Below, piece after piece: positions 7,763 through 64,000 of a DNA stretch of 64,000 nucleotides. Numbering within the stretch: the first letter of the stretch is position 1; each line of letters starts with the position of its first letter. The stretch spans positions 2,422-66,421 of the forward strand of contig CAZMTU010000001.1 in NCBI GenBank assembly GCA_964569225.1. Direction: 5' to 3'. The DNA comes from an uncultured Lachnospiraceae bacterium. Its GTDB lineage: Bacteria; Bacillota; Clostridia; Oscillospirales; CAG-272. The position numbers were made by a program, and so were the translations under genes. The notes under the pieces are model-generated. The model searched no databases and was not told where the DNA came from. It worked only from the letters and a program-made list of their open reading frames with translations.

Positions 7763-7870
7763 AAATGCGTTTAAAGGCTGCTCCTTCAAACGACATATGC
7801 CCTGACGGTCAAGCGCCGTCATTTCGGCAAGCCGAATTGGTGACTCGGCAGAAAGGGATGATTAATTTAT

Positions 7871-10093
7871 ATGAAGCTGAACAGGCGATATGCCCGGAGC
7901 ATCCGGGAAAATCTGTCATTTTACATATCCGCCGCCGTACTGACGGTGGCAACGCTGCTGATGTTTTATCTGTTTAATATTGCGGGAAACGCAATCCTCG
8001 AATTTTCGGCTGATTTCTATCCGGCGCACCGCCTTGAAGACGCAAACTTTACAACCTATTTGCCCATCCCCGACGGGGTGCTCGCGGAGCTTGAAACGGA
8101 TTATAACCTTACGTTGGAGGAAGAACACTACCTCAACATTCAAACCGACGGAACAACGGCACGAATATTTAAAAAAACAGACAAAATTGACCTTTATGAA
8201 ATAACCGAAGGCACGGATGTTAAAAGCGATGATGAAATTATCATTTCCGAGGGCTATGCGGTCAATATGGCGGTTCATCTTGGAGACAGCTTGAAAATTG
8301 GGGACAAAACATATACAGTTGCCGGATTTTTTCAACGCCCCGATTACCTTTATATGCTGGAAAACGAGGATGATTCTTATAAAAATATTTCCACCTTTTA
8401 TCTTGCCTATATGACAGACAGCGCGTTTGAGGCGCTGGGCGACAGCGGCTTTCACTATCTCGTGCGCTACAATGAGGACAACAGCACCGATTTCCGCAAA
8501 GCCGTTCATGAGACCTACATCATGCGCAGCTATTTGTCCAAAGAAGAAAATCCCCGTATTACGATGGTGGATACGCAGGCACAGATGTTTATTGTCATGT
8601 CCTATGTGATTCTATGCGTTTTGCCGCTGATCGCGGTGGCGCTGGTCAGTATCATTATCAGTCGGAAAGTCAAAAGCGAACAGCGGATGATCGGGACGCT
8701 TTCGGCGCTTGGTTATAAAAAAAGGCAGCTTATGCGTCATTACGCCGGCTTTGCCGCGCTTCCCGGACTGACCGGCGGTATTCTAACAGCGGTTTTATCG
8801 GCTATCCTTGCGCAGCCCTACAGCGAACTGGGGCTGCAGGATTATGAACCGATGCGTGTTCACGGCCATTTGAATCCGTTGATTGCCGTACTGGGCATTA
8901 TTGTTCCGACGGCAATGTATGTCATCGCCGCCCTGTTATCGGTCAGACGGTTACTTCAAAAAGATACGGTTTTGCTGCTTGCCGCCAATGCCGACGCATC
9001 AGACAAAAAAAGAAAGCGGATATTGGCGGACAAAAAAATGTCTTTCAGAAAAAAATATGCCATTCGTTCGGTAATCGGCAATCCAATGCGCAGCTTTGTG
9101 GTGCTGCTTGGCGTTTTTCTCGGTTGCTTTATCATGCTGTTCGGTTATGCGGTATTCGACTCGATACAGGCTATGATGGATACCGCGTCTGATACATTGG
9201 GCAGCTACGAATACCAATATATACTCAGTGAATTAATGGAGGAGAATCCTTACGGCGGCGAAAAGCTGCTGGTCGCATCAGCGGAAGACGCGAACGGCGC
9301 TGCTTTGACGCTGCTGGGAACCGAAACAAGCAATCCGTATTTAAATTTTCTTGATGAAAGCGGAAATAAAGTGGATATTGGGGATAAGTACTATATTACT
9401 TCCCTATATGCTACAATTCACGGTTTACAGGAGGGCGACAGTATCACCCTATATAATCCGCTGTCCATGGAAAAAAAGGAGATCATTATCAGCGGTATTT
9501 TACAAAATGATACAATGAAAGCCGTTTTTACATCGCTTGACAATACGGCAGAAATTATCGGCGTAAAGGCAGGTGTATACAACGCGCTGATAAGCGACAG
9601 GAAGTTGGATATTCCGCAGGAAAAGATAGCGAAGGAAATCCGGAAGTCTTCGCTCAATGAGCAGATGCAGACCATGCTCGATCAAATGGGGATTATGATC
9701 GTTCTTATGATCGTACTTGGCGTGATAATTTGTATTGCCTCCATTTATGTGGCGATCAATATGCTGGTGACCGAAAACCGAAGCAGCATTTCTATGCTTA
9801 AGGTGCTCGGTTACAAGGATCGACAAATCGACCGAATTGTGCTGGCTGCCAACCATATTTTCCTTCCGATCGGAATTCTGCTTTCGATTCCGGCCGCTTA
9901 TGCCGTATGCGCCACCTTTTACCGGTCGTTCGCGGATATGTTCAGTATGCTGATAACCGCGTCAATTGCTCCGAAAAGCTATGTCATATCGATTCTTCTG
10001 ACTGCTGCCAGTTATTTTGCTTCCTTGGCGCTCGCCCGCCGAAAGGTTAAACGGGTAGATATGATCGAAAGTCTGAAGGATAATAGAGAATAA
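7871..10093 (+). CDS. ABC transporter permease with two FtsX-type modules
   Basis: 740 aa. Each TM1 is followed by a large extracytoplasmic domain, then a 3-TM FtsX-like block (residues about 250-370 and 620-740). Adjacent to the ATPase. Confidence 0.85.
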   Translation: MKLNRRYARSIRENLSFYISAAVLTVATLLMFYLFNIAGNAILEFSADFYPAHRLEDANFTTYLPIPDGVLAELETDYNLTLEEEHYLNIQTDGTTARIFKKTDKIDLYEITEGTDVKSDDEIIISEGYAVNMAVHLGDSLKIGDKTYTVAGFFQRPDYLYMLENEDDSYKNISTFYLAYMTDSAFEALGDSGFHYLVRYNEDNSTDFRKAVHETYIMRSYLSKEENPRITMVDTQAQMFIVMSYVILCVLPLIAVALVSIIISRKVKSEQRMIGTLSALGYKKRQLMRHYAGFAALPGLTGGILTAVLSAILAQPYSELGLQDYEPMRVHGHLNPLIAVLGIIVPTAMYVIAALLSVRRLLQKDTVLLLAANADASDKKRKRILADKKMSFRKKYAIRSVIGNPMRSFVVLLGVFLGCFIMLFGYAVFDSIQAMMDTASDTLGSYEYQYILSELMEENPYGGEKLLVASAEDANGAALTLLGTETSNPYLNFLDESGNKVDIGDKYYITSLYATIHGLQEGDSITLYNPLSMEKKEIIISGILQNDTMKAVFTSLDNTAEIIGVKAGVYNALISDRKLDIPQEKIAKEIRKSSLNEQMQTMLDQMGIMIVLMIVLGVIICIASIYVAINMLVTENRSSISMLKVLGYKDRQIDRIVLAANHIFLPIGILLSIPAAYAVCATFYRSFADMFSMLITASIAPKSYVISILLTAASYFASLALARRKVKRVDMIESLKDNRE

Positions 10094-30559: not shown

Positions 30560-30752
30560 AATCTGTTTGTTTTATGCGGCGGAGAAAGAACGTATGTTCT
30601 TTCTCCGCTTATTTTCCTTGCATTAAAATAGATGCATGTATTTTTTTGTCAGTATTGTCTATTGAAATAGACAATACTTTTTTATAAGCGACAAATAATG
30701 CGATTTTTTGCGCACGCGTTGTGTTATAGTGAGAAAAAAGGAGGAAATTCGT

Positions 30753-35336: not shown

Positions 35337-37154
35337 TTAAACCAATTTTATGTTTCTTCCTTCTAACCATGCAGATAACTGAAGCATCCAGGCAATAAGC
35401 TGCGGACGCGCCATAAGCTGCCCGTACCAGGTTGTATTTTCACCTTCCATAAATGCAGAAAGGGCTTTTCGATCAATTAGCGAAGTAAAAAGCGAGTCCT
35501 TTTTCAGCTCGTTTGCCAGCTTTTCCCGAACCAACTTCTCATAAAGCGGATTATGGGTTTTGGGATAGGGCGATTTCTTTCGATTTAAAATATAATCAGG
35601 CAGAAAATCGCCTGCAGCCGCTCGCAGCAATGATTTTTCTCTTCCTCCGGCAAACTTGTATGACCATGGCAGGTTATATACATACTCAATAAAGCGATGA
35701 TCCGCAAACGGAACACGCACTTCGACTGACGCAGCCATACTCATACGGTCTTTGCGCATCAGCAGATTTTGCATAAAATAGCGTACAGACAGGCAGGTGG
35801 CGAGCCGCGCGGTCCGATCTTCTTCGGCTTCTCCTTCAATTACCGGACAGGTACTAAGAAAATTTTGGTAAACATCGGACAGCCAATGATATCCCTCGTT
35901 CGGAAGAACACGTTCAGCGCGGAAAAGCTGAATTCGGGCGAACGGATCATGAATCCACGGGAAGAAATCGCGGTAAAGCATTTCCGGACGATAAAACCAA
36001 GGATATCCGCCAAAAATTTCATCCGAGCATTCACCAGACAGCGCTACTGTGTGGCACTCTTTAACTTTTCGACAGTAGTAAAGCAAGGAGGAGTCGATGT
36101 CTGATTGCCCTGGCATGTCACGAAAGAGAGCCGCTTCGGTCAATAAATCCGCTACCACCATGGTCGGTGCGGTCAACACTGTATGTTTGGTGCCAAGATC
36201 TGATGCAAGACGCTGTGCAAATGCGTCATCCCCCTGGGGCTGAAAAAGCGTTGAATGAAAATTCTCTCGATTTCCCTCGTATTCAAAGGAATAGGTGGAA
36301 AGCTGTTCACCCTTTTCGCGCAAGCAGTCAGCGGCAATGGCAGTAATTACAGAAGAGTCCAATCCGCCTGATAAAAAGGTACAAAGCGGAACATCGCTGA
36401 TAATCTGCCGACTTACAGCATCTTTTAGCAGCATGGCGGTATAATGAACCGCTTCGTCTAAGGAATCATTGCAAATGGAGGCGATAAGCTGCCAATAATA
36501 ATCCCGCTTCGCGCCCTCAGGTGAAAGACAAAGCCGTTCGCCCGCTTTAATTTGATGAATATCGCGGAAAATAGCTGATTCTTCGGTAGTAACCGGCGCA
36601 AGAAAAAGCAGTTCCCACAACCCTTTCTGATCTATGATAGGACAAATTGCCGGATGAGCCAACAGGGCCTTGGGTTCGGAAGCAAACAGCCAGCGATCAC
36701 CGCTTTTAGCGTAATACAGCGGTTTTACACCCAGTCTGTCTCTTGCAACAAAGAGCGATTTGGCTGTATGATCATATACTAAAAAGGCAAAAATTCCATT
36801 TAGATAGCAGGGACAATCGGCGCCATAAAAAATATAGGACCAGAGGACTGCTTCTGTATCGCAGTGAGTGGTAAATACAGCCCCTTTTTCAGTCAAGTCT
36901 TTTTTTAATTCGTTGGTGTTATAGATTTCACCGTTATAAATGATGGTGTATTGTCTATTTTGATAGACAATACTCATTGGCTGACCGCCGCTGTAAGGAT
37001 CCATTACCGAAAGCCGGTTGTGGGCAAAGCAAATTGTTTCATCAAAGAAAACACCGCTTTGATCAGGGCCACGGTGCTGCATGGTGGCAGACATATTCCG
37101 GATATGAATTGCGTCCCCCGGATTCGGACGGTAAATAGCTGCAATTGAACACAT
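35337..37154 (-). CDS. asnB: Asparagine synthase (glutamine-hydrolysing)
   Basis: N-terminal MC nucleophile and PP-loop FLSGGLDSS. Confidence 0.9.
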   Translation of the reverse strand: MCSIAAIYRPNPGDAIHIRNMSATMQHRGPDQSGVFFDETICFAHNRLSVMDPYSGGQPMSIVYQNRQYTIIYNGEIYNTNELKKDLTEKGAVFTTHCDTEAVLWSYIFYGADCPCYLNGIFAFLVYDHTAKSLFVARDRLGVKPLYYAKSGDRWLFASEPKALLAHPAICPIIDQKGLWELLFLAPVTTEESAIFRDIHQIKAGERLCLSPEGAKRDYYWQLIASICNDSLDEAVHYTAMLLKDAVSRQIISDVPLCTFLSGGLDSSVITAIAADCLREKGEQLSTYSFEYEGNRENFHSTLFQPQGDDAFAQRLASDLGTKHTVLTAPTMVVADLLTEAALFRDMPGQSDIDSSLLYYCRKVKECHTVALSGECSDEIFGGYPWFYRPEMLYRDFFPWIHDPFARIQLFRAERVLPNEGYHWLSDVYQNFLSTCPVIEGEAEEDRTARLATCLSVRYFMQNLLMRKDRMSMAASVEVRVPFADHRFIEYVYNLPWSYKFAGGREKSLLRAAAGDFLPDYILNRKKSPYPKTHNPLYEKLVREKLANELKKDSLFTSLIDRKALSAFMEGENTTWYGQLMARPQLIAWMLQLSAWLEGRNIKLV

Positions 37155-52918: not shown

Positions 52919-52950
52919 CAAGCTGCCGCGATTGAAATCGCGGCAGCTTG
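52919..52950. other. Perfect 14-bp hairpin without T-run
   Basis: CAAGCTGCCGCGAT-tgaa-ATCGCGGCAGCTTG, between convergent genes. Confidence 0.4.
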
Positions 52951-53112: not shown

Positions 53113-53129
53113 GCTGTAAAAAAGTTCGT

Positions 53130-53345
53130 TTAATTCATCATAGACTGTCTAAATGCGCAAATTTGTTAGCCGCTTTTTCTTTTGACCTAAATGCGCAAAA
53201 GAAGCGCTTGACAAAAAGAAAACGATAAATGGAATTTCCCGCTTGAAAGCAGGGGTAAGGGCGCGCAGCCCTTGCCCACCGCTTTTTTTTAATAGGTGAA
53301 AGCTTTTGCGCGAATTATTGATGAATTGAACTTTTTTACAACCTC
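53130..53345. repeat. Degenerate inverted copy of the 'alpha' (280-bp) repeat unit
   Basis: TAAATGCGCAAATTTGTTAGCCGCTTTTT...AAAAGAAGCGCTTGACAAAAAGAAAACG...GGTAAGGGCGCGCAGCCCTTGCC aligns with the reverse complement of the 60.8-61.4 kb unit. Confidence 0.6.
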
Positions 53346-59504: not shown

Positions 59505-60734
59505 ATGGCAAATAAAGAAGAGTGGCTTCGGGAAGCCGAACAGCTATTTGATATTCTTGTGGAAGAAAGGAGAACGCTGCACCGGAACGCGGAAATCGGC
59601 TTTGATTTGTGCCAAACGGTTTCATTTGTGAAGCAAGAACTGACGGCTATTGGGCTTCAGCCGGTCGATTGCGGCAGGGCGGGCGTTACCGCGCTGGCAG
59701 GCGGGCGGAAGCCAGGTAAGGTATTTTTACTGCGGGCGGATATGGACGCGCTTCCCATTCGGGAAGAATCGGATGTGACGTTCGCGTCCCGTAACGGTCA
59801 TATGCATGCCTGCGGTCACGATATGCATACTGCCATGCTGCTGGGTGCCGCCAGACTGCTAAAGGCCCATGAGGATGAAATCGAAGGTACTGTCAAGCTC
59901 ATGTTTCAGCCGGCCGAGGAGATTCTTGAGGGCGCTCGTGATATGATCGAGGCAGGCGTATTAGAAAATCCGAAAGCAGACGCGGCGCTAATGATCCATG
60001 TTATGGCGGGAATGCCCCTTCCAGCAGGAACCGCGGTTGTAGCCGCTCCGGGGGTCAGCGCGCCGGCGGCAGATTACTTTGAGATCAAGGTGCAGGGGAA
60101 AGGCTGTCACGGCTCTATGCCTAATGCCGGTGTAGATCCGCTGACGGCTGCCGCGCATATTTTAATCGGGTTACAGGCCATTCATGCCAGAGAATTGGCG
60201 TTGGACGAACGCGCGGTGCTGACTGTTGGCAGAATGGAGGCGGGAAATGCCGCTAATGTAATTCCGGATAGTGTTATAATGAATGGCGCTATTCGTGCTT
60301 TTGACGAAGAAACAAGGAATTTTATTAAGCAGCGGACGGTTGAGATTGCCGAAGGAACTGCCGCGATTTTTCGGGCGAAGGCTTCAGTCGATTTCGGAAG
60401 CGGCTGTCCGGCGCTTGTCAATGACAGCGCGTTGGCTGGCTGCGCTGAATCGTATGTCAGGGAATTGCTGGGAGGCGGGAGGGTTTATTCGGCTGCGCAG
60501 CTCAGCATCGTGGGCGGCGGAAGAGAAGCTAAGCCTGCCGGTTCGGAGGATTTTGCTTATATTAGTCAAAGAGTTCCGTCTGTTATGTTGGCGTTGGCAG
60601 CGGGCGAGTCGGAAAAGGGGTATGGCTATCCGCAGCATCATCCCATGGTAAAATTTGACGAGCGCGTGCTTCCGACTGGAAGCGCGGTTTACGCATATTC
60701 GGCGTTTCGCTGGCTGCAAACACATAGGAATTGA
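59505..60734 (+). CDS. M20-family amidohydrolase (N-acyl-amino-acid amidohydrolase-like)
   Basis: HACGHDMH metal site, FQPAEE, and a dimerisation-lid region. Confidence 0.9.
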   Translation: MANKEEWLREAEQLFDILVEERRTLHRNAEIGFDLCQTVSFVKQELTAIGLQPVDCGRAGVTALAGGRKPGKVFLLRADMDALPIREESDVTFASRNGHMHACGHDMHTAMLLGAARLLKAHEDEIEGTVKLMFQPAEEILEGARDMIEAGVLENPKADAALMIHVMAGMPLPAGTAVVAAPGVSAPAADYFEIKVQGKGCHGSMPNAGVDPLTAAAHILIGLQAIHARELALDERAVLTVGRMEAGNAANVIPDSVIMNGAIRAFDEETRNFIKQRTVEIAEGTAAIFRAKASVDFGSGCPALVNDSALAGCAESYVRELLGGGRVYSAAQLSIVGGGREAKPAGSEDFAYISQRVPSVMLALAAGESEKGYGYPQHHPMVKFDERVLPTGSAVYAYSAFRWLQTHRN

Positions 60735-60792: not shown

Positions 60793-61382
60793 GCGGGCTG
60801 TAACATTTAGATGTTACAACCCGCTTCAGGTCGTCGAAAAACTATAATTGTTTGGCAGCTTGCAAAAAAGTTTTGATCGACCTTTTCTCAAAAGGTCGTG
60901 GGTACTTAGGGCGAAGCCCTAAGCCGCCCTCCGCAGAGGGTGAAATGCCCGGCCTTTCTCTTTTTGAGCGCTTTTTTCTCTTGGGCCTTTTTAGGCAGGA
61001 AAAAAAAGCGAACAAACGATTTGCGCGTTTTAACGAACAGCGCAATTTATTCTGGAATTTCTCGACAGACCGGCGGGCTGTAACATTTAAATGTTACAGC
61101 CCGCTTCAGGCGGTCGAAAAACTATAATTGTTTGACAGCTTGCAAAAAAGTTTTGATCGACCTTTTTTCAAAAGGTCGTGGGTGCTTAGGGCGAAGCCCT
61201 AAGCCGCCCTTCGCAGGGGGGCGAAATACCCAGCCTTTCTCTTTTTGAGCGCTTTTTCTCTTGGGCCTTTTTAGGCAGGAAAAAAGCGAACAAACGATTT
61301 GCGCGTTTTAACGAACAGCGCAATTTATTCTGGAATTTCTTGACAGACCGGCGGGTTGTAGCATCTAAATGCTACAACCCGC
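60793..61382. repeat. Tandem repeat: two units (280 and 278 bp) delimited by three 32-nt hairpins
   Basis: Hairpins at 60793-60824, 61073-61104 and 61351-61382. Units are about 95% identical with small indels. Confidence 0.9.
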
Positions 61383-61426
61383 TTTTTGTGATGCGCAAAT
61401 AGAATGAATATATAAAAATGTGCGCT

Positions 61427-62191
61427 TTATATTTGTACGGTGTTTAATTCCCGCGGGCTGATCCCCATAATTTTTTGAAACGCCCGATTGAAGCTGCGGG
61501 GAGAAGAGAAGCCGCAGCGTCCGGAAATCTCAGTGACAGAAAGATCAGTCGTGCGCAGCAGGGTAAGCGCCAGATCAATACGGTAGCTGTTAAGCAGATT
61601 GCGGAAGTTCATCCCGAAGCTGGAATTAATGAAATCGGAAAGATAGCAGTAGTTATATCCCAGCTCTTTGGCAAGAGAATCCAAATTTATGTCGCTTTTG
61701 TAATGCTCGTAAATATAATCGGCGATCTTGTGCACCAGCAGGTCGTTCCGCTGTTCGGAAATAGTCGGTTCGCAGACCGCATATGCTTCAGCACAGATCC
61801 CGTAGAGTAGGCTCATGCAGTGAAAGGGCTGATCGGCGTTTAGTGACAGAAGCGCGTCATACGCTGCATAATCAAAAATCGGTTTCTGAAAGTCGCAGTT
61901 TCTGACAGCGGAATAGAAATCTTTTACATAATCAGTTGAAAAAATCACTGTAATATTCTCAGACTCTGCGCCCTCAGGCACAGAGAAATGATGTACCCGA
62001 TTGGGAAGAATCAACATGGCCTGTCCTGCCCGAAGTGTATAGGATACGCCGGAAAGCACGGCCTGTGTGACGCCTTTCGTCACCGTCATGAATTCAAAAC
62101 TGGAGTGCATATGGTCTCCAAAGGTGAGATTGCGGGTATATCCTACATAGAGATAGCGCTGCAATTCTGAGCGCGATCGTTCATATATCAT
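61427..62191 (-). CDS. AraC-family transcriptional regulator (cupin + HTH)
   Basis: C-terminal double HTH ...ISGRCGFSSPRSFNRAFQKIMGISPRE. GGGGAG RBS. Confidence 0.9.
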   Translation of the reverse strand: MIYERSRSELQRYLYVGYTRNLTFGDHMHSSFEFMTVTKGVTQAVLSGVSYTLRAGQAMLILPNRVHHFSVPEGAESENITVIFSTDYVKDFYSAVRNCDFQKPIFDYAAYDALLSLNADQPFHCMSLLYGICAEAYAVCEPTISEQRNDLLVHKIADYIYEHYKSDINLDSLAKELGYNYCYLSDFINSSFGMNFRNLLNSYRIDLALTLLRTTDLSVTEISGRCGFSSPRSFNRAFQKIMGISPRELNTVQI

Positions 62192-62305
62192 AATGCTCCC
62201 CTGTAAAACCTAAACTTTTGTCCTCTATTGTAAAACTTTTTTCTTGAAATGTCAAGTATGTTTTTGTTATAATGAAGGCAGAAACAGGGAAAGGACGGGA
62301 ATTTT

Positions 62306-64000
62306 ATGTCAAACCTGAACAAAAAACTGCTCTCTGCGTTGTTAGCGCTGGCAATGGCGGCTTCTCCCATTTTTTGTGGGCTTCCGTCAGCCGCCGCCGT
62401 AAATAACGGGGCGGAGGAGCAGAACAAAGAAGAGGAAAGCTATATGAGGATCAAAAATTTATCAGGGCCGTCGGGGGTAGCTTTGGGCGGCGCGGGCGTT
62501 GGCTATTACGAGATCGACCCTACCGGACGGGTTACCCGAAACTGCATTAACAACATTCATAAGTCTTTTGTAGATTCACCGGACGGCTTTTTGGTTGGCG
62601 TTTATGACGGATCTGCCGCTGTCCGCCTGCAGCGGGACAGCAGCACCGTTTACGGAATGAAGGGCTATAGCGACAGCTATTATACCGGTTTGTGGCCTAC
62701 TGTGACGATTGAATTTGAAAACAGCGCCGCTGGGGTGGCTGACATGGGCTTTTCCGCTTATTCCGGCGTAGTGGCGCAGGACGTGAAAAACAGCTCGCTG
62801 CCCGTAGTTTTTTATGAGGTAGAGCTTTACAATGACAGCGACAGCGCTAAGGAGATGAGTGCCATTCTCACTTGGGGGGATGTGATCGGCAGAGGCATTC
62901 GGGATACCTCTGTGAAAAATCCCTCTAATTTGGATGGCGAGTCCTCCGAGTGGTATGATATGGATGTGCCTGCCACCTATGCCAAGGGTGTAACTGTGGA
63001 GAATGGCGGCGTGACTTATGCCGGTGTGCTTCAATACGCGAAAGAGCAGATTCTCCCTCAAAAAGCCACTTTTCAGAACTACAACAACAGCTTTATGATT
63101 TTGGCTGAGCAGAGCGATGACTGCACAGTGACTATTTTAAAGAATTTTGATGTTAATGATTCATCCGCGCTAAATACGTACACGCAAAGCGGCGTACTGT
63201 CTGCATATGACGAGAGCGAAACGGAGCTTTCCGCGGCTGTGAAGGGCGGAAGTCGGTCCACTTCCAACGGCAGCGCCGTTTCGGTGATGACTACCGTGCC
63301 TGCCGGCAGCAGCCGCACTCTGCGCTTTATGGTATCCTGGTTTATGCCTGAAATTACCGAAGCTCAGTATGCTTCCATGAATAAAATGGAAGGCTGCGAT
63401 TACAACAAGTATTATCATAACAGCTTTTCAACTATTGAAGAATTGACAGCCTATGCCATCGGCGCAAGAGATGCCATTCAGGAAGGCATTAATCAATGGC
63501 AGCAGCCGCTGCTCAGCAGCTCACTGCCTGACTGGCTGATTTTTAAAGAGATCAACAGCGGCTATACCTTCTATACGAACGGTGTGTTGAACAAACGGGG
63601 AAATTTCTCCACCTTGGAAGGAGAAATGGGCGGCTATGGCGGTACAATGGACCAGAAAATGAGTTCGCATCCCTTTTATGAAAAGCTCTTTCCTTCATTA
63701 AATCTTGAGGAAAACCTTCAGTTTGCCAATGTTACTGGAGCGGACGGAGAGATTCAGCATTTTGATGTCCACTATTACCACGGCATGTCTGACTCAGATC
63801 CTGAAAATAAGGTCAATCCTACGCCCGCAGGCAGTATGATCGACAATGCCGGCGCGTGGATGGTGCAGATGTGGAATTATTACGCGCAAACCGGCGACAG
63901 GACCTATCTGGAGGCTTATTATGATGTAATGAAGACTTCCATGGCGTTTATCAGGAGCAAGTACGCTTCGGGTACGCATATTCCTAACTATAATACCACC
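62306..64000 (+). CDS. Secreted GH116-like (GBA2-type beta-glucosidase family) glycoside hydrolase, 5' part (continues beyond the window)
   Basis: Not in the ORF track because no stop is reached. I read an open frame of 565 codons from the ATG at 62306 (AAGGA RBS). It has a signal peptide (ALLALAMAASP) and GVALGGAGVGYYEIDPTGRV, typical of the GH116 N-terminal domain. Confidence 0.7.
   Translation, partial: MSNLNKKLLSALLALAMAASPIFCGLPSAAAVNNGAEEQNKEEESYMRIKNLSGPSGVALGGAGVGYYEIDPTGRVTRNCINNIHKSFVDSPDGFLVGVYDGSAAVRLQRDSSTVYGMKGYSDSYYTGLWPTVTIEFENSAAGVADMGFSAYSGVVAQDVKNSSLPVVFYEVELYNDSDSAKEMSAILTWGDVIGRGIRDTSVKNPSNLDGESSEWYDMDVPATYAKGVTVENGGVTYAGVLQYAKEQILPQKATFQNYNNSFMILAEQSDDCTVTILKNFDVNDSSALNTYTQSGVLSAYDESETELSAAVKGGSRSTSNGSAVSVMTTVPAGSSRTLRFMVSWFMPEITEAQYASMNKMEGCDYNKYYHNSFSTIEELTAYAIGARDAIQEGINQWQQPLLSSSLPDWLIFKEINSGYTFYTNGVLNKRGNFSTLEGEMGGYGGTMDQKMSSHPFYEKLFPSLNLEENLQFANVTGADGEIQHFDVHYYHGMSDSDPENKVNPTPAGSMIDNAGAWMVQMWNYYAQTGDRTYLEAYYDVMKTSMAFIRSKYASGTHIPNYNTT

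Follow-up and report, generated by a model that had tools for sequence, protein, structure and literature searches.

The 64,000-nucleotide (nt) stretch of contig CAZMTU010000001.1 analysed here, hereafter the window, comes from an uncultured Lachnospiraceae bacterium (assembly GCA_964569225.1). Between an M20 peptidase gene and the gene of an AraC-family regulator it carries a block (positions 60793-61382) in which three hairpins alternate with two long repeat units. We consider this block to be probably a member of a modular, non-coding family of dispersed, interspersed repeats, present here as a tandem dimer and sited within a duplicated host terminator. The family, most likely unnamed until now, resembles by analogy the BOX elements and the MITEs (miniature inverted-repeat transposable elements), with modules of ~190-250 nt and four to six predicted hairpins in each. 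The element itself is most likely a selfish, non-autonomous repeat.

Architecture of the block

Reading of the sequence and a repeat finder both gave three palindromes of 32 nt, H1 (60793-60824), H2 (61073-61104) and H3 (61351-61382), which set apart two units of 248 and 246 nt. An earlier note, made from the letters of the window without database searches, had described this hairpin-unit-hairpin-unit-hairpin order, and its coordinates were right. As it had also stated, H2 and H3 are perfect, with arms of 14 bp, and H1 has a single C/A mismatch on the plus strand that can be read as G.U on the minus strand; the RNA folding energy of H1 is -20.2 kcal/mol on the plus strand and -24.5 kcal/mol on the minus strand. 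Not one palindrome of the H type was found in any shuffle of the window. Compared with H2, H3 has both partners changed in two pairs (C-G to T-A and A-T to G-C), together with one loop base. The arms are of type C6/A11 in the left arm of H1 and both arms of H2, T6/A11 in the right arm of H1, and T6/G11 in both arms of H3. This pattern supports the view that each hairpin evolves as a unit, and it argues against hybrid sites produced by crossing over inside the loop and against half-hairpins serving as inverted repeats of the individual units. Abutting MITE inverted repeats with a TA/TTAA duplication at the hairpin centre were rejected, since they leave the outer half-hairpins unexplained and since the arms co-vary within the hairpin and not within the unit. 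Regarding the loops, TTAG of H1 (60807-60810) and CTAA of H3 (61365-61368) are mutually reverse-complementary, H2 has a symmetric TTAA, and the central TA is invariant; the mirror pattern of H1 and H3 has a chance of about 1 in 12 and would be relevant only if the two acted as an inverted pair.

Over 312 nt the two periods have 93% identity. Three indel events (+1, -1 and -2 nt) separate them, and the units differ in addition by 11 substitutions, 10 of them transitions. The indels disrupt every open reading frame (ORF) above ~45 aa; this agrees with the earlier argument that 1-2 nt indels break the ORFs, and the units are, judged from their reading frames, non-coding. Each unit folds 7-9 standard deviations better than shuffles on either strand (z-scores -7 to -9). 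Three internal stems had been reported as perfect in both copies. Two of them are (CGACCTTTT/AAAAGGTCG and CTTAGGGC/GCCCTAAG), and the third is imperfect: its 3' arm reads GCGCAATT, and mismatch-free pairing is limited to the 6 bp of TTGCGC/GCGCAA (61021-61026 with 61040-61045). A genuine GCGCAAAT lies outside the block, just 3' of H3 (61393-61400). It is exactly complementary to ATTTGCGC in unit 2 (~61298-61305), and such a pairing would enclose H3, probably by chance.

Counted with the two bases that follow each hairpin, the direct repeat of the window is 34 nt long, and all parts of the block are given here on the plus strand. The first copy, H1 + TT (60793-60826), is preceded by the A-rich flank GTAAAAGTAAAGATCAA. 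Unit 1 (60827-61072) consists of a leader (CAGGTCGTCGAAAAACTATAAT...), the family core (60853-61038) and a tail. Its hairpins are A (60878-60898), B (60905-60923), C (60925-60942), the long T-rich/A-rich hairpin D (60963-61016) and E (61021-61045), which starts in the core and ends slightly past the core match. The second copy, H2 + TT (61073-61106), is followed by unit 2 (61107-61350; core 61134-61316) and by the third copy, H3 + TT (61351-61384), after which the sequence reads TTTTTGTG. Within the hairpin C region (60925-60951 and 61205-61232), a stretch of 22 nt holds 6 of the 14 differences that separate unit 1 from unit 2. These six are transitions or a 1-nt insertion and are all compatible with pairing on the plus strand; the clustering is marginal (P 0.07).

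A dispersed family of repeats

In order to find relatives of the block, several collections were searched. An exhaustive phmmer search with the plus-frame translation of the unit had a single protein hit, P0015 (E 7.5e-7), whose own sequence is internally repeated. P0015 and its cluster mates are spurious ORFs lying over tandem arrays in JGI metagenome contigs, and they represent three distinct loci that occur together in the same samples. At locus A (L124-L131) the array lies between genes for a GFO/IDH/MocA oxidoreductase (plus strand) and an LRR protein (minus strand), and at locus B (L132-L134 and L136-L142) between genes for a GtaA-type glycoside hydrolase (plus) and a PALP enzyme (minus); at locus C (L135) the array precedes a gyrase-B-like gene (minus), and the left side is cut. 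The JGI units are ~190 nt long and number 2 to at least 3 per array; neighbouring units abut directly and no hairpin separates them. The copy number of locus A is variable, with at least 3 units in L124 and 2 in L125. Eight contigs (L124, L131, L135, L137 and L139-L142) end inside arrays, and there the gene callers placed ORFs of 50-122 aa (P0015-P0019).

A hidden Markov model (HMM) built from the JGI units only and then run on the window matched both units of the block (60856-61025, E 7e-19; 61135-61303, E 4e-17) and a third site on the minus strand (53158-53306, E 4e-11). The core alignment, A3, takes in three lineages: the window units are 66-68% identical to the JGI units, the copy at 53 kb is 54-60% identical to all others (54% to units 1 and 2), and the JGI units and loci are 87-96% identical among themselves. 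Further copies, which the earlier note had proposed to look for, are thus present both in the JGI contigs and in the window itself.

The third member is a single, diverged copy on the minus strand (53115-53340), starting 23 nt after the stop codon of the pyruvate:ferredoxin oxidoreductase (PFOR) gene and lying between a 700-aa ORF (plus) and this gene (minus). It has terminal inverted repeats of 27 nt, TGTAAAAAAGTTCAATTCATCAATAAT (53340-53314) and ATGATGAATTAAACGAACTTTTTTACA (53141-53115), which are 78% complementary and give TGT...ACA ends. A local hairpin with 15-bp arms is found on the minus strand at 52919-52950, followed on that strand by TAATTATAAAAACTAT..GCCTTCGCGCC. This sequence resembles the leader motif that follows the left hairpins elsewhere and may be a leader remnant.

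Convergent genes flank all loci, namely the JGI loci (including L135, with its left side cut) and the two window loci, and wherever the upstream gene is seen, the repeat shares its orientation. Of the two window loci, one is on the plus and one on the minus strand, though the GC skew keeps one sign throughout, as within one replichore; orientation thus follows the upstream gene and not replication. The neighbouring genes (M20 peptidase, PFOR, oxidoreductase and glycoside hydrolase) are functionally unrelated.

Other searches were negative. In Rfam, with E up to 10, the best matches of the block were chance-level miRNA models (E of at least 0.2, far below the gathering thresholds) and the JGI arrays gave nothing, in line with the earlier statement that no named family is recognisable. 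Plasmids and phages gave no blastn match to the block or to a JGI array, five pattern scans of viral contigs were empty, and word-indexed protein searches with the 91-aa ORF and a six-frame concatenate returned nothing; ARAGORN detected no tRNA or tmRNA. No further members were present in ~1.2 Mb of other loci compared, and a look-alike region at 38.8 kb (AAAACTAT/CTTCGCGCCA) proved to be at chance level.

The emptiness of the first searches (plasmids, phages, viral contigs, GTDB representatives and word-indexed proteins) would suit a purely local tandem duplication without relatives, or an assembly artefact. Such a reading is scarcely credible, being already refuted by the homologues at other loci, the 7% divergence of the copies and the sequencing data. 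A Logan unitig from SRR10165007 is identical to 61311-62761 and begins at the first 31-mer specific to copy 2, while the preceding 31-mer is present twice (61032 and 61310), which is where a two-copy model predicts a break. Both diverged copies are thus present in the SRR10165007 reads and the tandem is not an assembly artefact; with copies 7% apart, a collapse or duplication artefact cannot be its source. The misassembly that the earlier note had named as a possible cause is therefore set aside.

Bounding hairpins and the local terminator

At the three loci with both ends visible (L125, L132 and the window), the array is bracketed by a direct repeat made of the local hairpin and a few bases. 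In L125 the repeat is 35-36 nt long (7930-7964 and 8389-8424), with the hairpin GGGGCG(G/A)TCTC-AAAC-GAGATCGCCCC. In L132 it is 38-40 nt long (7819-7856 and 8414-8451), with the hairpin GAGCCGCCGTATC.../GAACCGCCGCATC..., in which a G-C pair is compensated to A-T; in the window the 34-nt repeat is present in three copies. The hairpins have no sequence kinship between loci (GGGGCGATCTC.., GAGCCGCCGTATC.., GGGAGGAGCTTT.., GCGGGCTGTAACAT...), whereas the cores are related. The left hairpin copy, flanked 5' by A-rich sequence, lies 14-58 nt past the stop codon of the upstream gene. At all three complete loci the repeat starts 1-2 nt past the hairpin stem, and a T tract follows the last hairpin copy only. 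Because the hairpins are locus-specific while the cores are shared, and the T tract stands only after the last copy, we read the hairpin as a host terminator that was duplicated on arrival of the repeat. H1, H2 and H3 are then most likely three copies of the ancestral bidirectional terminator of the M20 and AraC genes, and not ends of an element.

The usual terminators of the window are hairpins with stems of 10-16 bp. The outer flanks of the block resemble the two halves of a bidirectional terminator, with an A-rich stretch 5' of H1 and TTTTTG 3' of H3 (the TTTTT seen in the earlier note), and H1 and H2 are directly followed by TTCAGG. A T tract is wanting at H1 and H2 on the plus strand and at H2 and H3 on the minus strand, and a terminator scan scored H3 as terminator-like on the plus strand and H1 on the minus strand. 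A GC-rich stem-loop followed by a T tract, the arrangement of a putative intrinsic terminator, is found at H3 (plus), at H1 (minus), at the right hairpin of L125 (both strands) and at the hairpins of L132 (minus).

The paired changes of H3 show that the palindrome matters as a hairpin and is kept as a unit. The earlier note had taken the covariation of H2 and H3 as an argument for selection on the stem itself; the two compensated pairs are real, and the argument is overstated as one for a special RNA. Compensatory switches are routine in intrinsic terminators (PMC5381666), and template switching during replication can yield compensatory changes in one step, without selection (PMC8794818), so that the changes of H3 are not evidence for a special RNA or a transposon end.

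The hairpins bounding the window units, and the non-coding, intergenic nature of the element, recall an IS200/IS605-type PATE or a REP/RAYT-type element whose bounding hairpins would be the recognition structures of a transposase. This reading is very improbable given the following observations. The hairpins are wholly different between the loci of the family and the JGI units abut without them; no GTAG-type head lies beside the hairpins, and the two window loci are oppositely oriented within one replichore. The H palindrome, searched with N at its variable sites, occurs in the window only in the block and is absent from one genome for each of 185,579 species (GTDB representatives). A Pfam scan of the ~40 window ORFs found no transposase, recombinase, integrase or Y1 (RAYT) transposase, the last being the enzyme that the earlier note had suggested looking for; no transposase was found in the JGI flanks examined either. 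An IS200/IS605 PATE in the strict sense was rejected because, unlike the conserved, imperfect, subterminal hairpins of that class, those seen here are locus-specific and perfect and lie flush against the borders of the units, and because a flanking duplication is present. The earlier proposal of a non-autonomous element thus stands in so far as the HMM places copies of the family elsewhere, and falls in so far as the locus-specific hairpins are not family-specific PATE or REP/RAYT ends.

Structure of the conserved core

Hairpins A, B and C are kept in position across the three lineages, which are 54-68% identical, with changes on both sides of the stems. Hairpin A varies as CGACC/GGTCG and CAAAC/GTTTG, the outer pairs of hairpin B as TTA/TAA, GGA/TCC and AA/TT, and hairpin C as CGCTCTC/GAGAGCG, CCTGCTT/AAGCGGG and CGCCCTC/GAGGGTG. 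The long hairpin of the core pairs a T-rich tract with an A-rich tract. Non-Watson-Crick pairs in the core are mostly G.U on the sense strand. The core may have an RNA role.

These features, together with the z-scores of -7 to -9 and an orientation set by the upstream gene and not by replication, would suit a functional structured RNA, either a cis-acting module of the 3' untranslated region (3'UTR) or a processed small RNA, co-transcribed with the upstream gene and ending at the last hairpin. Tandem copies and paired terminators would then serve RNA stability or dosage, and such a function is compatible with a mobile origin. As an explanation of the block, we regard it as unlikely. Both strands fold equally well, and the substitutions between unit 1 and unit 2 spare the structure weakly (P 0.03-0.25), with no clear strand preference. 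C/A mismatches stand on the sense strand in H1 and in unit 1 of L125, and palindromes of DNA repeats can covary by template switching (PMC8794818). No promoter-like site was found within the arrays (window block, L125 and L132), Rfam gave no match, and the adjoining genes have unrelated functions.

In the JGI units (L125:8080-8160, L132:8090-8180 and L135:70-140), the two neighbouring T-rich arms CGCTTTTCTTTTTG and GCTTTTTCTTTTG can each pair with a single A-rich arm, CAAAAGAAAAAGC. For some JGI units there is a further alternative, in which B and C refold together as one long hairpin (GAGGGCGCGGAG/CTCCTCGCTCTC). The alternative folds are mutually exclusive.

Origin of the arrays

Under the favoured explanation, an interspersed repeat within a duplicated terminator, the element would have entered just 3' of the terminator stem, with duplication of a target of ~34 nt that included the whole hairpin. 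Unequal exchange between the two H copies would then have given the H-U-H-U-H arrangement of the window (U, unit); the earlier suggestion of a recombination substrate fits here, since it was probably on the hairpins that the tandem duplication acted. In the JGI arrays, amplification would have taken place between units instead. The copies would later have diverged by 4-7%, with the pairing of the palindromes kept either by selection on the terminator or by palindrome-templated repair. As H1 and H2 lack a U tract on the plus strand, M20 transcripts would read through both units and stop at H3, with a structured 3' tail of ~650 nt. The duplicated terminator could have originated by transposition with an unusually long staggered cut or by a template-switch insertion at a stalled fork. 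An autonomous insertion sequence (IS) partner, if there is one, would bear ends like TGTAAAAAAGTTC...GAACTTTTTTACA.

The template-switch route can also be taken as a full explanation without any transposase: a fork would have stalled at the terminator hairpin, and the nascent strand would have copied an array at another locus through A/T-rich microhomology, come back upstream of the hairpin and recopied ~35 nt. The borders of the inserted segment vary by locus and have no inverted repeats, and the length of the duplication is variable (34 to 40 nt). The right border always lies in the A-rich TTGGATAAAAG region of the unit, beside the A tract of the target. Both borders of the inserted segment fall at positions inside the unit, the leader having AAAACTA(T) and the tail finishing near TTGGA, and the arrays are circular permutations of the unit. 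All this is what such copying would leave. A targeted mechanism, however, is a better fit to the common entry point at three independent loci, 1-2 nt past the stem, and to the uniform orientation, and the lone copy at 53 kb bears proper inverted repeats of the sort that a transposon derivative would have. We therefore hold a pure template switch to be quite unlikely.

Several points weigh against the favoured explanation. No empty site was obtained, and the duplication of the hairpin at insertion is something that we infer and have not seen. The ends of the inserted segment beside the direct repeats have no consistent terminal inverted repeats: unit 1 gives a weak, gapped 14-nt match at its ends (P 0.017) and unit 2 none (P 0.68). 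Direct repeats of 34-40 nt exceed any target duplication that could be documented, those of the IS1202 group being 27-28 bp (bioRxiv 10.1101/2022.12.17.520857). The copy at 53115-53340, the one with clear inverted repeats, is flanked by neither a short target duplication nor a hairpin duplication. Finally, the known carriers of the family are only two genomes or populations.

Three further candidates were tried and rejected. A circle integrated by site-specific recombination at H would need the same site at every locus. An integron attC site or gene cassette array was discarded because attC sites are imperfect, 57-141 bp long and have extrahelical bases, whereas H is a perfect 32-bp palindrome without the GTTRRRY core, and because no integrase is present in the window. 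An invertible promoter switch (inverton) was discarded because there is no promoter-like site, the sites are at gene 3' ends and the window has no recombinase.

Genomic context and other observations

The M20 peptidase gene (59505-60734, plus strand) is the upstream member of the convergent pair; the array runs in the same direction and would extend the gene at its 3' end. The AraC-family regulator gene (61427-62191, minus strand) is the downstream one. The window is ordinary chromosome of spore-forming Clostridia, with noc/soj/spo0J/serS, spoIIE, PFOR and pyruvate kinase genes. In a set of 15 billion proteins, each of the two flanking proteins stands as a singleton at 90% identity. Among 80 loci with M20 relatives (at most 73% identical), neither an AraC neighbour nor the repeat was found. 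The closest AraC relative is 88% identical (L118, GCA_964527575.1) and has unrelated DNA downstream: at L118:4290-4720 synteny stops right after the AraC stop codon, and a WYL-domain gene cluster takes the place of the repeat and the M20 gene.

Elsewhere in the window, two palindromes (30651-30678 and 36948-36973) have the common arms GTATTGTCTAT/ATAGACAATAC. The first is just upstream of a ParB/Noc-like gene (30708) and the second near the 5' end of an asparagine synthase gene (35337-37154, minus strand); a single regulator may use both as operators.

A metagenome scan with hairpin B (CTTAGGGCGAAGCCCTAAG) gave 36 loci that share only the hairpin and a few flanking bases, and these are not counted as members of the family. 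Homology of their flanks to the unit is weak, and only L019 stands out (z 4.7 and 3.5). This 19-mer hairpin, whose loop we take to be the very stable GCGAAGC mini-hairpin, is found in ~15 unrelated metagenome contexts (L004, L005, L010, L014, L019, L025, L031; L007, L011, L017, L018, L023, L028, L032; L008, L026; L013; L020; L036). In six of the contexts the hairpin is extended identically, by (G)GGTT on its 5' side and C(C/G)G on its 3' side, which gives a motif of 24-29 nt in what appear to be different phyla. Treponema-type MCP genes, for example, have it at their 3' ends, and in another case it lies upstream of a class I lysyl-tRNA synthetase; there is no match in Rfam. In L024:10440-10894 and L030:2780-2872, the hairpin is one of three small hairpins per unit of a tandem array with a period of ~105 nt, at a contig end.

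Significance of the family

The family, a new one among the interspersed repeats of uncultured Clostridia, breaks short-read assemblies, spawns spurious ORFs (P0015-P0019) and would add hundreds of structured nucleotides to 3'UTRs. If the paired hairpins are target duplications, the family is the sign of a mode of insertion in which terminator hairpins are recognised and copied in full, which to our knowledge is undescribed for bacterial repeats. This would also account for the ability of selfish DNA to occupy gene 3' ends while termination persists. If the duplication is incidental, the finding is an ordinary BOX-like repeat. More tentatively, and with considerable doubt, we suggest an undescribed class of terminator-nesting elements in gut and rumen Clostridia. 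Such elements would enter in sense orientation 1-2 nt past the terminator stem and duplicate ~35 bp of target with the whole hairpin. The old hairpin would be read through, the fresh terminator would close the 3'UTR, and tandem amplification would occur between hairpins or units. Such a class would imply structure-guided integration with widely staggered cuts on either side of a hairpin, and a function of the conserved multi-hairpin core as RNA could follow as well. Its closest formal parallel is the repeat duplication in CRISPR spacer integration.

Comparison with known systems

The BOX element of Streptococcus pneumoniae (boxA, tandem boxB, boxC) is, like the present family, a modular, strongly folded, non-coding interspersed repeat, with an internal module in one to several tandem copies between a leader and a tail, enrichment between convergent genes and a variable copy number (PMC3049150). 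In contrast, its modules are 45-60 nt long and not ~190-250 nt, there is no sequence similarity, and the target duplications of BOX are short; nor is BOX reported to be nested between duplicates of a host terminator. The pneumococcal SPRITE, a Rho-independent-terminator-like element (PMC3049150), also occupies gene 3' ends between convergent genes and has a terminator-like hairpin. This hairpin is part of the repeat consensus in SPRITE, whereas here it differs at each locus and looks host-derived. The BrickBuilt MITE of Porphyromonas gingivalis (PMC4596501) has the same order of leader, tandem units and tail, is always intergenic and is present in several copies per genome. However, its bricks are of 23 nt against units of ~190 nt, it carries promoters, which were not detected here, and its inverted-repeat ends have a clear counterpart in only one copy of the present family.

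The REP/BIME repeats of enterobacteria are palindromic extragenic repeats of gene 3' regions, often between convergent genes and sometimes in tandem, and they stabilise mRNA 3' ends or serve as terminators, besides being substrates of recombination (PMC3184786). They consist of one conserved palindrome of 20-40 nt in hundreds of RAYT-linked copies, whereas in the present family a long multi-hairpin core is conserved and the short palindrome is locus-specific. The IS1202 family (bioRxiv 10.1101/2022.12.17.520857) has unusually long direct repeats, 27-28 bp in the IS1202 subgroup, and ends that begin with TGT, as do the inverted repeats of the copy at 53 kb. Unlike IS1202, no transposase was found here, the repeats are of 34-40 nt, and the arrays flanked by long repeats lack TGT...ACA ends, so that the link is a lead only. 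Finally, the H hairpins have the GC-rich base, the 14-bp stem and the outer A and T tracts of bidirectional intrinsic terminators (PMC5381666), and the switches between Watson-Crick pairs that these terminators make through G.U or mismatch intermediates are matched in H1. A normal terminator, however, is single, whereas H is present in three copies separated by repeat units.

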